Shown piece after piece: positions 9,151 to 17,245 of a stretch of 64,000 bases of DNA. The stretch is from Atractiella rhizophila. Its lineage: Eukaryota. Each line of letters opens with the position of its first letter. Within the stretch, counting starts at the first letter, position 1. The DNA lies in the NCBI GenBank assembly GCA_021432655.1, contig MU271374.1, forward strand, positions 1 to 64,000. The letters are read 5' to 3'. Made by a program: the position numbers and the translations under genes. Under the pieces are notes generated by a model. That model saw only the letters and a list, made by a program, of their open reading frames with translations. It did no database searches and was not told the DNA's origin.

Positions 9151-12100
9151 CAAGTTCACATTTGCTGAAGCTTCGCATCTCCAAAATGCCAAAGGAAGAC
9201 GCAAACTTACGCAAACTAACGCGAACAACCATGACATGGAGAAGGGAATAGTCGGAAGAGAGGATGGGAACAGTTTGGTCAGTCTGGGTGGGAGAAGGCA
9301 GTATATCCTTAGCTTGGGCCTGAGATATCGATGAGAAACCAGTAAGTTTTTACTTATTTGACGAAGTGCTGGATCGTAGTTGCAAACTTCAGATTTCAAA
9401 ATTCGTATCTCTATTGAGCTCGCAGGAATAGTGATATACTCCGACTATGTAATATGTGATGCTGTCAAGAAAGCTAGGGAACAGTTTACGTCAATTGAAG
9501 GATGTCACGTGACGGTCATGAATCTGACCTAAGACTATGATCCGAATGCCTTCAACGAGCAGCCTAATCATACTATGCAACTCGTAGAAGAAGTGATGTG
9601 GACTGGTACACTAGCGCCGTCATTAACTGGAGTTAGCGATCCTGATTGTGTGGACGGAAGTGCTTACATGCTTAGACTTTATTTTTTGTGCTTCTTCGCG
9701 CTTGCGTGAAGTTGACATTGTAAACAAATAATTGCAGCTCCAAAGCGCCGACTGACTGTAATGACAGCTGGATCATACCCCTTTGAAACGGCTCGCTGTC
9801 ATTTCGATTAATGTAATTTCATTCCCAGCAGTTTCTACACTTTCGAAGATGCACGAACCCTATCAGAAGATGCAAATACCACCTATAATAAGTCTTTTTT
9901 TGCCCCGTACTCATCCCAAGACTGGAGAAAGGGCTATCTTTTTGGTTGCGCTGGCTGGAATTGGGTCCATTCGGCGTGATGTGCTTCGATCCGAGGAGGA
10001 ACAGCGCAGGCAGTAATGCCCTAGTAATGCCTTCCAGAGGCATTGAAGTAGGATAGTCTTTAGATTGTTCACTTACAGTGCATGGTGAAAGTGTTGTGAA
10101 AATGTGGGCATCGCCTAACCTTCTTCCTTGACCCCTTCACCCTTCACCAAAGAATACTTGTGATCGGGTGATCCACGTTGATGGGCGTAACCTGCGCAAT
10201 TTTGGCGTCAGTATCTAATCGGCGCCAACCTCCTTAATCTGGTCCTGATCGATGTTCCCTTGTACCCTCAGATTTTCATTAAGCCCGATGTACTGCTGAG
10301 AAAAGTAAGATAGACGGACTATGCGAAAGGCTCCCTACTGGTCTTCCACCATTCACAATCGCGAATTCTGATCGGCGACCTAGTTGGTGTCTGGAGATTT
10401 CGAGCTTTGCTGCGACTATGACATTCAAGCCTTCTTCCCGTCTTCCTCCCTGTTTTTTTAATAAGTGACTACTCTCTCTTTGGTCGATTTCTCGTCCCTA
10501 ACGGACCATGATTGCAGTTTCTTTGGAAACAAATCTCCCGAAGGAAAGACCCGTAGCTGAGCCACACCCGCTCTTTCGTACCTTAGTGCAGTCAACTCAC
10601 TTCTTGATTCAACTGAAGATTTTGATCTGCCTTGAATTTCTGTGTGAGGCCCCAGAACCTCCCATCTTAACCCTGACGGACCTGACGTCTGACACTACTT
10701 TGTGTCTTCGAAGTTTCGGGAACAAAGAATGTCAGTGTTGGTTGGGTATGTTTGGTGACAAAATAAAAAGGCAGCTGTCAGAAGCCTCAGCCTGCTTCGC
10801 CCCTTTAGACTTGCCTTCGAGACGCCTTTGCTAGAGGATGAACGAGACAGACGAAGTTTATGTCTGGAAAACAGGGATGGGCAAGTTGTATTCTGCCGAA
10901 GACTTTACAGCACGTCATGGATGTAGTTCCCCTGAGGACATTTTGATCGGTAAGGACCTCACAAACTCTTTAAATTCATTTTCACGTTTCCTCGAAGTCT
11001 TTCCTGCAGGTACTGTGGTCTTACTGCAATTTAACTCGACCTCATGCCGTTTGTGAAGGCTCTTACCGACGGGTATTGGACGAGAATGGAACCGAGTACT
11101 TTCCTTCAACGAGAGATGGCTTACTCTGGCTTCGAGGTAAGCTCCTCCTAAATTCGTTCACTGCCTTTCGTTCCGTTCACGCACCAAATTTTGCTGCCAG
11201 GTCAATCGTACGTGCCAACAGCTTAAAGAACCTTGGTTCACGGCGACTTTGTAGCTGCATTTGTCAAAGTTTTGACATGGAGAACAAATGTGAGAGTTCG
11301 GTCCTTCCGCGTTTTCCCTTCGAACTAATGGCCTGGACAGACAAACGACCTGCAGTCATCAGAAAGCACTTTATTTCTTGCAGGAGCCGAGCGGAACAGT
11401 TCGGTCAAAACGACCCGATCGCGATGTGTTGTTTATTGTGGGAAAAGATGTGAAACCCCAATCATATCCGCCTGAATTCTTTTGTCAGCGGCCGATATTA
11501 GTGTTTGGATTTTGGGTGTAGTGTAACATGTATCTGGAACCGGTGAGTGCCGGTCTGTACTTTCTCAAAGTATGTTGTAGATGTAGAGGGTAATCGATGG
11601 CTCATGTTTATCTCAAATGCAGGAATTAGTACGAATTTGAGTGAAGTAGTGAGGTGCATTAGAGTACTTTTTAGATAGGAATGGCTCTACAGCATTATGA
11701 GAAGCCCATTAGAACCAACTTCTCTTTTCTCTCACATCATAACGCTTCCCTCTAATTCCCCAGATTCCCCAATTATTCTTTATCATCACCCTCGGATCTG
11801 CCTCCAACACCTCCCATTTCTCACTCCTAAAATAATTCTCTCCAGGCGTCAAAAGCCACTCATACTCACCTTCCACCCCATCCGTCGTCTCCATCGCTCG
11901 CAGGTCACGCTCAACGTCGGCAGGAGAGAAACCGGTGCAAAATAGGGCACATTTTGTTGAAAGGATCTTAAGCAACGCGTCGTGCCATACAGTCGTTGAT
12001 TGTGGCGGTCCTGGATCGATCGGAAGGAGTGTTGGGGACGCTCCAATTTCGGGTACGGCCGAAGGAGGAGGTTGAGTTGGAAACCCGAATCCCGGGGAGA

Positions 12101-12170
12101 AAGCAAAGAAGACATCGCTGATGCAAGGGTTGGTAAAATAAATGCAACAAGGAGTAGCACTCACTGGTAA
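8985..12170. repeat. Copy 2 of the ~3.2 kb tandem segmental duplication
   Basis: See copy 1. Its right end is the functional MSS51 3' exon. Confidence 0.9.
10838..11501 (+). CDS. Small uncharacterised micro-exon protein (~113 aa), putative C2HC Zn-binding; paralog B
   Basis: Exons 10838-10949, 10998-11009, 11059-11136, 11201-11207, 11255-11289, 11341-11425, 11489-11501 give MNETDEVYVWKTGMGKLYSAEDFTARHGCSSPEDILIVFPAGSYRRVLDENGTEYFPSTRDGLLWLRGQSCICQSFDMENKYKRPAVIRKHFISCRSRAEQFGQNDPIAIGRY*. Confidence 0.75.
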
Positions 12171-13211
12171 GGATCAAAGGGCTCAAAAATTTGGTGAACC
12201 TCTTCGTAGGTACAACGAAGACTGGTAAGCGTGATGTCTGTGCTCAAAATTCTCGTCCAGCTAGGCACGCCGAAGTATCCCTTCCCTTCTGAATCATTTT
12301 GTTCGTGCTTCACTAATCCAACTCCGGGGTTCTTCGGTGGAGGTGGGACGTGTGATTCCGGACCAACAAAAAAGATGTGAAAAGGAACATTTGGAAACAT
12401 GTACGAAATCTGGCGGACAAGTGCAGCAGGAAGCGTCGACTCTGCTCGTGCGCCAACGACGAAGACTCGTATGGGAAGCAGTGGTTTTTTGAGCGTTGGT
12501 TTCTCCCCTAATGGGGGATGCAATGCTATTCGGAGTGCTGCTAAGGAGCGAACACCTTCAGTGGTGAGCCGCCGATTGCGCGTTGTATAAGGACTGAATT
12601 GGTGAAGGACGCTCGCGATGGTGAGAGGATAGGTGAGAATTTTGGAGACGTGCCGCCGCGAGCGGTCATTATCTATAGACTTGAAATGACGAGTGTAGAA
12701 ATATACATCCCAGTTTGCTAACGAGACAACCTCGTCGTAAGGCTGCTCGCCTATTCTCTCCTTCAGCACTGACCAACCTCCATTGCAATATGTGAAGCTT
12801 ACCAGGCATATCGAACTCATCCACATTTCTCCCGCTCCGTAAGTCATGCTCATCCTCATTAATCTCCCTCAGCTGCCAACAATACCGCTCCCTATCCTCG
12901 TCCTCTTCCCACATTTCCTGACTGGCATGAGTTGGGAAACCGCAATCTGGACAGTCAAAAGCAACGTGTTTCTGAACCCCATACTTCTCTAACGAGACCG
13001 GACATAATGCGAGTCGTTTGATTCGCTCCGCCTTCGCTCGCATTGCTGGTATTGGCGACTTGGCCAGGACATGGAATAAATCATCCTGCTCGATAATTGG
13101 TTTTGGCGGAGGAGGCTTCTGAGGTTGTGCACGTCGTTTGAAGAAGCTAAAGATGGTCCGTGCCTGCCCCGGAGGCTTGAATGGACTGAAAGGCGAGCGT
13201 AACACGAGCAT
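11709..13211 (-). CDS. MSS51: Mitochondrial COX1 translational activator/assembly factor Mss51
   Basis: FDCPDCGFPTHAS...LREINEDEHDLRSGR; NWDVYFYTRHF; FVVGARAESTLP; PFDPY..FFAFSPGFG; NNWGIWGIRGKRY. Two short introns. Confidence 0.93.
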
Positions 13212-13239
13212 GAGTGAAGAAATTCATGGCGAATTGTCG

Positions 13240-13245
13240 CACGTG
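13240..13245. promoter_or_regulatory. CACGTG E-box in the 71-bp divergent MSS51 / YlxR-like intergenic gap
   Basis: Exact CACGTG centred between the two opposing ATGs (13211 and 13283). The same motif recurs in other upstream regions. Confidence 0.45.
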
Positions 13246-13282
13246 AGGTAGCGGAACCAAAGCACGCCAGGTATTGTTTGCC

Positions 13283-14529
13283 ATGAATACCAGGACAGTC
13301 AAGTCGCTCGTCTATCAGACGACTCAGAAAACATCCATTTTATTGCAGGGGAGAGTCCCGCGCCAGTCGTCCGAGACCCACGAAAAGAGTGTACCGAATT
13401 ATAAACAACTTGAACCAGAATGGGAGGGCAATCCATATTGTAGGTCCAACTGAGGAGTACTTCGAGGAAATTTGACTGTTGTTTAGTACGAATGATTGCG
13501 AGTCCTTTGCGTCCATGCATTCTCACGAAACGGAAACACCCTACCTCCCTCATGCTACGATTTTCGGCGGCGCATGACGAGACAGCTAGCGAAGGAACGC
13601 GGCTGGCCACAATGCGCTTAGTTCCTACGCGAATACTTCTAGAGGGCCGCCCCACTCGCAAAGGACGTGGAGCATGGCTTATATGCCGTAAGGAAGCTGT
13701 CGAAGCGATGTGCCGCAAAGGGTGTAAGTGTTCTCCAGTAGAACGTGGTGGTTGACAGAATTAATCAACTTGCGCAGGGTTTCTTCATTGGAAACTGCTC
13801 GAAACGCAAAAGATGGAGAAAAACTCCAATCTCGTTGAACCGGAAGCGTCAAGATTAATCAAGCAGATTCAATCTCAACTTGTCCGACGAATTTGGCAGG
13901 AACTTGAAGCCCTAGCTGAGAAAAGAGGGAAAGTCCTGTGGTATGAAAAGTCACAAGCTAACAATGATAGTATGTGTTGTACTTCATTAAATCCATCCGG
14001 CGCTGATTTGTATATCCTACTTTGTTCCGAAGAAGAGCCTATAGAGCAAACATCGTTGGATCTTGTCGACTTACTCAATCGCTCCGACTTAGACTCGATC
14101 CTTAAAGCTGATGACGGTTGTCTTCTGTCACGACCACAAGGCTGCATCATTCTTCTAGACTCGCCAATGCCGTCAAATTTGTTGTCAATTCCAGAAGAAG
14201 ATGAAGCATTTTCTACTATCCTCAACCATACACCGGTCTACTCCTTCCCTTACCTTCTCTCCCATTCATCCACCGTTTTCCCACCATCCACTCCCGCTCC
14301 AGAAACCGCACGAACCATGGACCTGTTTCGACAGCTTACTCACAGTCAACAGGAGTGGGATGGTACAGCAGTGGTAGTGAAGTTCCATATGCGAACAGTT
14401 GAATTGTTGCAGTCGCTTTGGAGGACGAGGCTGTGGCTCGGAGAGGGATGGGGCCATGCCGATGGATTGGGGATTGGAGAGTGGAAGAGTAAGAACCCGC
14501 CCGATATGATTCCAAAGATTATAGGATAG
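13283..14529 (+). CDS. Hypothetical protein with YlxR/DUF448-like N-terminal motif, possibly mitochondrial
   Basis: ATG 13283 exon ending ...EGNPY splices to LRMIASPLRPCILTKRKHPTSLMLRF...GRGAWLICRKEAVEAMCRKG and then to the 13813-14529 ORF. Confidence 0.7.
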
Positions 14530-14710
14530 ATTGTCGTCAACCAAAGTTCGTTACACGGACAAGATCATCACGCAGAGTGATCTTAAACCGTCACCAGTAT
14601 AGAGTGAGGATCTTTCCCCTGAGACCTGCCCCTGCTCAATAGCAATACTCTTGCTGAGATGAAGTGGGAAGTGCTTTTGTGCACATCCGTGACTCATGAT
14701 CGCGTAACAA

Positions 14711-14839: not shown

Positions 14840-17245
14840 ATGAAGAAAGGTGACGCAGCAACAATCCCATTTGCGGCAGAGAATCCAAGCAAGCGCCATG
14901 AAAGGCCTGCATGGAAATTCATAGCTGCAATGCTTCTCGCCTTTTTCTCTTTCAAATTCCTGGTTGCCCGCCATCCACCTCAATCACTTCACCATGTTAT
15001 GAGTCGCGAAGGTGGCTTTCGTCCGCAGGTGCAAGAGACCCATGGAATGGTTCCCCGCGCTCCAAAGTGGGCACCTTGCTTCGATCACCCTACAGAGCTT
15101 CCCTGGGAGTGTGCTACCATTGCTGTACCCATGAATCACTTCAATTTGAGCGATGAAAGGAGCTTTACGATTGCTCTGAGCAAAATTCCTGCTAGCAAAG
15201 ACAAAGTGAAGAAGGGAACTGTGTTCACCAATCCCGGAGGGCCAGGCAAGTATCTCGCTCTCTTGACTCGTAGAGTTATCTTGTTGACCATGGCTCATAG
15301 GTGGAAGCGGAACGGCACAAAATCAAGGCAAAAGTGGTCCAGGACTCTATCGCATCCTGCAAGGAGAATACGATCTAGTAGGGTTTGTCTGATCGCACTC
15401 AATCCTACTCACATCCCCAGCTTACACTTTGTCAGGTTCGACCCTCGTGGTATCAACTTGACTAGTCCCGCAGTTTCTTGTTTCGAGAATCAGCTAGAGC
15501 AATATCTCTTCGACTTGGGTTCCTTGTCATTCAACATTCCTGCGAACCTTTCTCTTCTCCGGGATGGTCACCTCGAAAGCCAAGTCGCCATTTCGCGAGC
15601 GGGTATTGAAGCTGCCAACAGAAAATGCGTGGAGCAGGTGGGAGAACACTTGAAATATGTTTCGACTGCAGACGTAATCCGTGACATCCATTGGATGAGC
15701 CGAGCTCTCGACGGGGACGACGCGAAGATGTGATTTTCCTGTTTCTTTCTCCATCAAGTCTCATGCTGGTGTGTAGCAACTTCTTTGGCACGAGCTACGG
15801 TACAATCGTCGGGCAGTATCTCACAATGATGACACCTCCCGAAAAATGTGAGCGTTGCTTCCAGTCTTTCACCTGCTGTGTTAACTTCTTTTGTTAGTGG
15901 GGAAGGTAGTGATTGATGGAGTGGTAGAGTAATCATTCTTACTTTGGGTATCTGCGACGACCTTGTTTAGGCTGATCTATGATGCCTGCAGTGCGGAACT
16001 TTGGCTCGAATATGGCATCAATATCTTCAAGCAGGGTTTAGATGACAATAACAAAGGTTCGCAAAGCGTCCACTTGTTTGCCATTCTAACGTCGCTCAGT
16101 ATTTGGAGCCTTCGCTCAAAGCTGTCTCGACGTTGGGGAAGAATGTGCACTTTCAAAGCATTTCCAGACTGTCGACGATATTCTCGCAGCAATGGACTCT
16201 CTCATCGACTCCCTTTACCTTTCTCCCATTCCTCTTGACCATCCGGCGCTTCCGTCATTATCGTTCCAAGCTGGCAATCTGCGTTTAGCGTACAACGCAA
16301 TGGCATACTCCATCACGAGTTGGAAAGCATTTGCTGGTCATATCGAGGATGCGTTATTTAAATCAAACTTCTCCGGCCTACCTGTAGGACAACCCATCAA
16401 TTTGACAGAGGCTGCCTTGAAACCAGCGCAATCTGAACGGGCAGGGTCCGTGATATCTACCTTCGAATCCTCACTAAGTGTTATGAACAGGTCTGCGATT
16501 TTCTGTGCGGATGCCAAGCAGTGGGATTTGCCCAAGCTCACGCCTCGAGAGTGGACCAAGGCAGCAATGTGGGGTCTTGAAACATACACGTCAAGAGTTG
16601 GAGAGTTCCTCTCTGCCCTTGACCATTGCGACCTCTGGGACATCAAATTTGAAAACAGGTTTGTTTTCCACTCCTTCGTAAGTCGCCTTTTCACTGTGAA
16701 ACATAGATATGATCGGGGTTTCAAACTGGAAAATGGGACGTTGGAAACACCCATACTTATTCTCAGTCAACTGTATGATCCTGTAAGCATTTTTTGCCGA
16801 CATGTCATTCCGATTACCAACCGTTCTCATATTAGGTCACCCCCCTTGTACACGCCACGGACGCTTTGCAACGATTTGGTGACAACTCTCGACTGGTTGT
16901 CCAATCGGATGGTTATGGGCACTGTGCCATGTGTGCCTCCTTGTCCACCAACAACAAAGACAAAACTAACTGGTTTCTTCGCGACACAGAGGACAAGCCT
17001 CTTTGTGCACGGCTAAGATCCTCCGCGACTATTATGTTAATGGGATAGTCCCAGCAGAGAGCTATACACGATGTCAGGTCGACCAAAAGCCATTCTTGCC
17101 TTGGAACGACACCCAAGCGGTACTTCAGCATCTCGACATCAGTGCAACTAACACCGAAGACTTCGCGGAGGCGGTCTCTCTGCTGGAAGGTTTGGCGATG
17201 ATGGGAGAAGGCATGAGGGATCAGCGAACAGGGTTAGGTTTATAG
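14840..17245 (+). CDS. Alpha/beta hydrolase, TAP-like (tripeptidyl aminopeptidase family) with N-terminal TM anchor
   Basis: WECATIAVPMNH, VFTNPGGPG(G), FDPRGI, nucleophile elbow GTSYGT, PILILSQLYDP, GYGH, CTAKILRDYYVNG. Many short introns. Confidence 0.85.

Follow-up and report, generated by a model that had tools for sequence, protein, structure and literature searches.

A fungal gene with a YlxR domain of alphaproteobacterial affinity and a candidate role in mitochondrial gene expression

The window analysed here is a stretch of 64,000 nucleotides (nt) from the genome of Atractiella rhizophila (contig MU271374.1, positions 1 to 64,000, assembly GCA_021432655.1). At 13283-14529 on its + strand lies a spliced four-exon fungal nuclear gene that encodes a protein of 360 amino acids (aa). 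Sequence comparison establishes that the N-terminal domain of this protein is homologous over its whole length to YlxR (DUF448, PF04296), a bacterial family, and by the same kind of comparison the fungal domain groups specifically with the YlxR of alphaproteobacteria. The leader of ~50 residues in front of the domain looks like a mitochondrial presequence, and it is probable that the protein serves mitochondrial gene expression as a factor not recognised before. Collectively, the results favour, with a probability of roughly 60%, an endosymbiont-derived YlxR gene that is now nuclear and whose product is a mitochondrial RNA-binding factor.

Gene structure, relatives and the YlxR domain

The gene opens with an ATG at 13283 and closes with a stop codon ending at 14529. 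In sequencing run X14, the library type of which is not on record, an intron-less contig of 1107 nt was found that covers 13279-14540 and joins the exons at three GT..AG junctions (13439>13487, 13723>13778 and 13969>14033). Joined by these coordinates, the four exons give an open frame of 360 aa. Exon 1 (13283..13439), an open reading frame of 52 codons and one base that includes the start codon, encodes a basic leader rich in serine and threonine with a conserved NPY at its end. Intron 1 (13440..13486, 47 nt, GT..AG) separates it from exon 2 (13487..13723), which encodes most of the YlxR-like domain (SPLRPC.., ..LMLRF.., ..GRGAWLIC.. and ..CRKG) and is the exon matched by PF04296 and NF006622. 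Beyond intron 2 (13724..13777, 54 nt, GT..AG), exon 3 (13778..13969) completes the domain, encodes a conserved helix (..SQLVRRIWQE..) and leads into the C-terminal region. The YlxR-like domain as a whole spans 13498..13932 (residues ~57-183, as aligned by hhalign) and is split by intron 2. Intron 3 (13970..14032, 63 nt, GT..AG) is in frame and free of stop codons, and it is removed both in the X14 contig and in the NCBI gene model. Exon 4 (14033..14529) encodes a predicted alpha/beta region with weak L7Ae/YlxQ-like fold matches, the end motif that is invariant in the family (..LWR.RLW.GEGW.., alignments A2 and A3) and the stop codon.

An initial annotation of the window, made from the sequence, had placed the ATG, the stop codon and the splice between exons 1 and 2 as they are found here; the spliced junction reads ..NPY-L-RMIASPLRPC.. 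and its splicing is backed by the X14 contig. Two details of that gene model needed correction. Exon 2 had been read as ending in ..CRKGFF, whereas the X14 junction joins it to exon 3 through a split Trp codon, giving ..CRKG-W-FLHW.., and the third intron at 13970-14032 had been overlooked. Because intron 3 is removed, the protein has 360 aa rather than 381. The X14 contig differs from the window within the YlxR-like gene by 25 letters and one in-frame 3-nt deletion at 13292 (~2%). Synonymous changes make up 13 of the 21 listed differences compared with an expected 23% (binomial p=1.7e-4), and 4 of the 5 in exon 1. This excess, which includes exon 1, indicates that the frame is under coding constraint.

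To identify the protein in databases, word-index protein searches were performed with exon 2 (among longer proteins, 34 candidates) and with the database protein itself (1586 candidates), and each recovered a single protein, the A. rhizophila hypothetical protein BT69DRAFT_1298427 (P0001), which is 100% identical over an overlap of 73% of the exon 2 query. At 286 aa, this NCBI model takes an internal Met within ..MLRF.. as its start. Left out are 13283-13548 of the window, comprising all of exon 1, all of intron 1 and 62 bases at the beginning of exon 2. The 74 N-terminal residues lost in this way include the first YlxR motif. A HMMER search with P0001 against 1.84 billion representative sequences returned six proteins at E<=0.001, of which five were relatives (E=7.7e-5 to 6.3e-4). 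A profile search with the family added further relatives, with seven proteins at E<=0.001 among 8000 scored candidates. A. rhizophila belongs to the Atractiellomycetes of the Pucciniomycotina, and the named relatives are likewise all Pucciniomycotina (Meredithblackwellia, Cystobasidium, Leucosporidium, Rhodosporidiobolus, Rhodotorula and Sporobolomyces); three classes of this group contain the family, and one further member was of metagenomic origin. All detected members are labelled as hypothetical proteins, and none has a precomputed Pfam domain. A metagenome scan confirmed one relative among 316 pattern matches (L185:51-488), with 39% identity to residues 211-370 of the relative P0005.

The family alignments contain the conserved blocks (NPY)L-MLSSPLRRC-LT, P-DLM-RF, GKG-WV-C..AV..LA-KG-YKRL, HSQLARRVVQE and the invariant end ALWR-RLW-GEGW. 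The NPYL of the Cystobasidium protein P0006 corresponds to the junction of exons 1 and 2 in the window and therefore supports this splice independently. In two further models, P0003 and P0011, the first residue is homologous to the Met at which P0001 falsely starts (M-[LV]-VRF..), and both are probably shortened in the same way; P0013, a cluster member of P0003, is 44 aa longer (356 vs 312 aa). Two cysteines are conserved in the fungal N-terminal domain (in P0005, C58 in SPLRRC and the invariant C119 in GKG-WV-C; alignment A2). A published classification places the YlxR fold among the treble-clef zinc fingers, with ligands lost to a varying extent (PMC4999995).

The initial annotation had noted a motif resembling YlxR/DUF448 and proposed a profile search against that family. 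Exon 2 alone matched PF04296 at E=1.1e-5 with 25.6 bits, just under the cut-off of 26.9, over profile positions 1-54 of 75; the remainder of the profile falls beyond intron 2. PF04296 also matched five of ten relatives weakly (E=1.2e-4 to 0.19, 12-22 bits, all below the cut-off), being the only family listed in four of these five and the better of two weak matches in the fifth. To compare the families at the level of profiles, we collected bacterial YlxR genes from representative genomes using the Pfam model and aligned them with the fungal domains in hhalign, the E-values of which refer to single pairwise comparisons. Eight fungal N-terminal domains, including that of the spliced window protein, aligned with 62 bacterial YlxR domains over 90 columns with a probability of 98.2% (E=2.7e-14, score 78.1). 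Controls scored far lower, with 9.8 for a reversed alignment and a maximum of 16.4 over 20 column shuffles. A repeat of the profile-profile comparison gave a probability of 98.0% over 99 columns, and the window domain as a single sequence gave 96.2-96.7% (E=4e-10 at 96.7%). These results identify the motif as part of a true YlxR homologue. A phmmer search of exon 2 against the PDB sequences returned no matches at E up to 10.

The genome search found YlxR matches in 45 of 61 alphaproteobacterial, 59 of 61 Bacillota, 24 of 26 cyanobacterial and 21 of 26 actinomycete genomes. One unpublished genome is counted among the alphaproteobacteria and one among the actinomycetes, and no sequence from either entered the analyses. 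The 16 alphaproteobacterial genomes that had no match are mostly small (1.1-2.1 Mb), and the sample may hold incomplete genomes. The single Ehrlichia genome searched had no YlxR match.

Affinity to alphaproteobacterial YlxR proteins

To determine which bacterial YlxR type is closest to the fungal domain, the fungal profile was aligned with a separate profile of each bacterial group. The alphaproteobacterial profile was matched with a probability of 98.9% (score 97.1, E=9.9e-18, 31% consensus identity over 90 columns), compared with 74.4% (score 32.8) for Actinomycetota, 24.4% (score 25.2) for cyanobacteria and 17.0% (score 23.7) for the 31 domains of Bacillota. An alignment with 29 alphaproteobacterial proteins gave a probability of 98.2% over 98 columns and covered query residues 57-183. 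When the bacterial sequences were ranked with a hidden Markov model (HMM) of the fungal domain, the first 22 ranks were all alphaproteobacterial, and the median scores were 21.4 bits for alphaproteobacteria, 7.4 for actinomycetes, 6.6 for Bacillota and 2.6 for cyanobacteria. A quick maximum-likelihood tree of 100 rows and 102 columns placed the eight fungal rows in one group with a support of 99 in the Shimodaira-Hasegawa-like approximate likelihood-ratio test (SH-aLRT). This group lay inside a set of 37 rows that contained all 29 alphaproteobacterial rows (SH-aLRT 99), with the other 63 rows apart. The NCBIfam model NF006622 (PRK09190) was the best match for all three relatives scanned (E=1.1e-6 to 4.5e-3, 16.4-28.2 bits, cut-off 184) and also for exon 2 of the window (E=0.0025, 17.2 bits). 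The alphaproteobacterial affinity shown by these comparisons fits descent from the mitochondrial endosymbiont, an origin that the initial annotation had proposed and with which the hhalign probability of 98.9%, the HMM ranks, the tree and the NCBIfam matches all agree.

The alphaproteobacterial counterpart is a fusion of YlxR with an L7Ae domain. PRK09190 matched three of three proteins with 206-242 bits, PF01248 was found in five of six scanned (E<=0.0058), and YlxQ-family models matched the C-terminal half of all three alphaproteobacterial proteins scanned (E 1.6e-11 to 0.016). In both of the two loci examined, the gene sits between nusA and infB. We know of no established function for this protein. 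The fungal protein shares with it the homologous N-terminal domain, for which it is the nearest bacterial type among the groups compared, and the order of a YlxR domain followed by an alpha/beta domain, the latter being predicted in the fungal case. The homology extends, by way of a linker helix, to the first residues of the L7Ae-like part in the bacterial protein. In contrast to the bacterial gene, the fungal gene is eukaryotic and nuclear, with three introns and an N-terminal leader. Its YlxR domain contains an internal insert of ~17-20 residues, and its C-terminal region is about twice as long, has no detectable sequence similarity to the bacterial one and ends in an invariant Trp-rich motif that has no aligned bacterial counterpart. 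The fungal scores also lie far under the equivalog cut-off.

The initial annotation had drawn an analogy to RnpM of Bacillus, which the profile comparisons do not bear out. Bacillus subtilis RnpM and the Streptococcus pneumoniae YlxR (PDB 1G2R) belong to PF04296 like the fungal domain and share the motif order P-x-R-x-C ... L-x-R-F ... G-R-G-A-W/Y ... K-K-G. However, the Bacillota profile was matched with a probability of only 17%, exon 2 scored 14.8 bits (E=0.022) against NF047356 (RnpM) with its cut-off of 80, and RnpM is a single domain of ~90 aa. The Bacillus protein binds RNase P RNA with a KD of 460 pM and inhibits the enzyme modestly, and such binding is shown for RnpM only (PMC10853771). 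Given the weak match to Bacillota and RnpM, a role as RNase P modulator is therefore not simply transferable to the fungal protein.

Predicted location, function and rival explanations

The first 30 residues of the protein contain five Lys or Arg, no Asp or Glu and nine Ser or Thr, and acidic residues begin at position 31. Similar leaders, with 53-100 residues ahead of the SP-R-C motif, are present in three relatives whose N-termini are complete. A mitochondrial presequence had been proposed in the initial annotation; the composition agrees with the basic, S/T-rich leader described there and constitutes the basis on which targeting is predicted. The YlxR region (residues 53-180) is basic as well, with 25 Lys or Arg and 13 Asp or Glu. 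In the pathway that we propose, an endosymbiont gene for a YlxR+L7Ae protein, from the neighbourhood of nusA and infB, would have moved to the nucleus and become the fungal gene. The leader would direct the product into mitochondria, where it would bind a structured RNA (rRNA, a tRNA precursor or RNase P RNA), and the bound protein would act in RNA maturation or translation.

Whether the C-terminal alpha/beta region of ~175 residues is a much-expanded L7Ae/YlxQ-like domain is, in our estimate, about an even bet. We modelled P0005 and P0001 with AlphaFold2 and compared both models with known structures. Foldseek found nothing in the PDB at E<=0.001 for either full-length model; its non-significant rows include entries described as 'L7Ae derivative' and as eL8. 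VIA-align against 48,161 PDB representatives placed entries of the L7Ae superfamily at the top for the C-terminal region of both low-confidence models. The scores in the two models were 5.0 and 4.5 for an SBP2-ribosome entry (7zjx_B), 4.8 and 3.2 for Gadd45a, 4.4 and 4.1 for human RNase P (6ahr_C), 3.1 and 3.7 for yeast RNase P (6agb_C), 4.0 and 3.2 for Snu13, 3.4 and 3.4 for Nhp2p, and 3.4 and 3.5 for B. subtilis YlxQ (3v7q_A, 87-88 of 97 residues). Several ribosome chains were also among the matches, and we take the listed ribosome and RNase P chains to be L7Ae-type subunits (eL8, Rpp38/Pop3). If the region does have an L7Ae-like fold, the fungal protein would keep the whole alphaproteobacterial architecture.

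Several observations weigh against a mitochondrial factor of endosymbiont origin with this architecture. Every curated threshold was missed (PF04296 with 25.6 vs 26.9 bits; PRK09190 with 17.2 bits for exon 2 and at most 28.2 for the relatives vs 184; RnpM with 14.8 vs 80). The profile of the whole family matched four unrelated proteins among the PDB sequences (best E 0.38) and no YlxR structure. The predicted N-terminal domain has a predicted local distance difference test (pLDDT) of ~50-60, and no YlxR structure stood among the rows that Foldseek and VIA-align listed for the full-length models. The models were built on a shallow family alignment and are of low confidence overall (mean pLDDT 59.9 for P0005 and 56.9 for P0001), and they are not independent because they share that one alignment. 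When the C-terminal region of the fungal family was aligned with the L7Ae-like region of the alphaproteobacterial proteins, hhalign gave a probability of ~1% in local, low-mact and global modes alike. The affinity was judged from four bacterial groups sampled in depth and from a quick tree built on 102 columns, in which the fungal stem is long (2.33), and a later transfer from an alphaproteobacterium could also account for it. That the product is imported into mitochondria, binds RNA and acts in the process proposed is our inference, as is any regulation that it may share with the adjacent MSS51 gene.

The strongest rival, to which we give a little less than even odds, is that the family is already named, being the basidiomycete orthologue of yeast RRG8 (YPR116W, PF17068), with a YlxR ancestry that has perhaps gone unrecognised. 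The possible orthologue in Saccharomyces cerevisiae, RRG8, is a fungal protein located in mitochondria. It is required for mitochondrial translation, which its deletion abolishes, and for maintenance of mitochondrial DNA (PMC2768984, PMC7453639). The relative P0006 matches PF17068 precisely in the region of the YlxR motif (residues 81-138 to profile positions 55-108 of 277, E=0.057, 13.2 bits), and two ESM-Atlas searches returned Ascomycota clusters in which 17-19% of the members carry RRG8 (scores 0.81 and 0.82). However, this link lies below significance. Only one of ten relatives matches PF17068, and it does so below the 27-bit cut-off; the exon translations of the window, scanned exon by exon, gave no match to it at E up to 10; and by the calibration of the tool ESM-Atlas scores below 0.9 count as leads only. 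The same limit applies to a Mucoromycota cluster returned by ESM-Atlas in which 30% of the members carry PF04296 (scores 0.82 and 0.87). Searches of the full-text literature turned up no description of RRG8 as having a YlxR or L7Ae domain. The link to yeast RRG8 is only a lead.

The other alternatives are less probable. A role like that of RnpM, in which the protein binds the RNA subunit of an RNA-based mitochondrial RNase P and damps or tunes 5' processing of tRNAs, is unlikely. The basic character of the fungal YlxR domain would suit such a role, as would the effect of a cyanobacterial homologue, which raises the levels of RNase P RNA and tRNA (PMC11622646). Against this stand the probability of 17% for the Bacillota-type profile and the 14.8 of 80 bits for the RnpM model. 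In addition, we are not aware of a known function for the alphaproteobacterial fusion type. We consider it more unlikely still that the protein is a cytosolic or nuclear RNA-binding protein acquired by a later horizontal transfer from an alphaproteobacterium, with its adjacency to MSS51 a coincidence. Such a history would be in keeping with the sequence searches, which find the family only in Pucciniomycotina and in one metagenomic protein, and composition is the one line of evidence for mitochondrial targeting. However, the gene carries three spliceosomal introns, the fungal stem branch is very long, the family spans three classes of Pucciniomycotina, presequence-like leaders occur in all four full-length members examined, and the Atlas leads extend to YlxR proteins of Mucoromycota and RRG8 proteins of Ascomycota. 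Taken together, these features speak for a gene that is old in fungi. If motifs in a lineage-specific protein matched YlxR by chance, this would explain why all curated cut-offs were missed, yet the similarity is colinear over 90-99 columns at 98-99% probability, the controls score far lower, and PF04296 is matched independently by the window and by five of ten relatives. This last explanation is highly improbable, and it is refuted as far as sequence statistics allow.

The adjacent MSS51 gene and the meaning of the family

The YlxR-like gene is divergently oriented to a homologue of MSS51 on the - strand (11709..13211). The product read from the ATG at 13211 matches zf-Mss51 (PF13824, E=8.7e-22) and MSS51_C (PF20179, E=2.3e-10), both above their cut-offs. 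Its exons are 13211-12802, 12749-12165 and 12117-11709, which encode 467 aa if there is no further intron below 12100. The two short introns (12750-12801 and 12118-12164) are supported by the junction 12749/12802 in three runs and the junction 12117/12165 in four. The spacer between the start codons at 13211 (-) and 13283 (+) is 71 bp long (13212..13282), exactly as the initial annotation had described this head-to-head arrangement. Contigs show that both genes occur as spliced transcripts. Spliced MSS51 contigs were present in all four runs compared, soil metatranscriptomes among them. Runs X1, X2 and X4 cover only MSS51 and not the YlxR-like gene, from which we draw no conclusion. The X14 contigs stem from another strain or haplotype, and MSS51 differs far less than the YlxR-like gene (six letters in a contig over 12100-13184). 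The relative on the metagenome contig L185 is uninformative on the linkage to MSS51 because its contig ends on the 5' side, so that the 5' half of the gene and the upstream neighbour are missing. Downstream on the + strand, a Pfam scan of parts of the open reading frames 14840-15733 and 16192-17016 (14840-15250 and 16192-17013) gave no match.

We found no paper in the full-text literature that describes a eukaryotic or mitochondrial YlxR protein. The term 'YlxR' in PMC2911113 is a false match to YlXRN1, and 'DUF448' in PMC7329392 and PMC10179368 is DUF4485. Since ~30% of the Mucoromycota cluster is already labelled as YlxR by Pfam, the presence of the domain in fungi is not new to the databases. 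Several gene models of the family, that of the window included, are cut in such a way that they lack the first, diagnostic motif.

If the reading proposed here is right, a piece of the transcription-translation operon of the endosymbiont survived unrecognised in fungal mitochondria, and basidiomycetes would have in this family a candidate for an RNA-binding factor that acts in mitochondrial RNA processing or translation. The family would also suggest a testable molecular role for yeast RRG8 and give access, in a eukaryote, to the alphaproteobacterial YlxR+L7Ae protein. The most interesting question, for which there is at present a lead, is whether yeast RRG8 is the same protein. In its boldest form, which we regard as doubtful, the idea would be that fungal mitochondria keep the YlxR+L7Ae protein of the nusA-infB operon as an imported, nuclear-encoded factor, with RRG8 as its divergent orthologue. 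If this is true, RRG8, an orphan without which mitochondrial translation fails, would be identified as a two-domain binder of structured RNA that perhaps acts on an RNA-based mitochondrial RNase P or in mitoribosome assembly. It would then provide a tractable eukaryotic model for the uncharacterised bacterial PRK09190 family.

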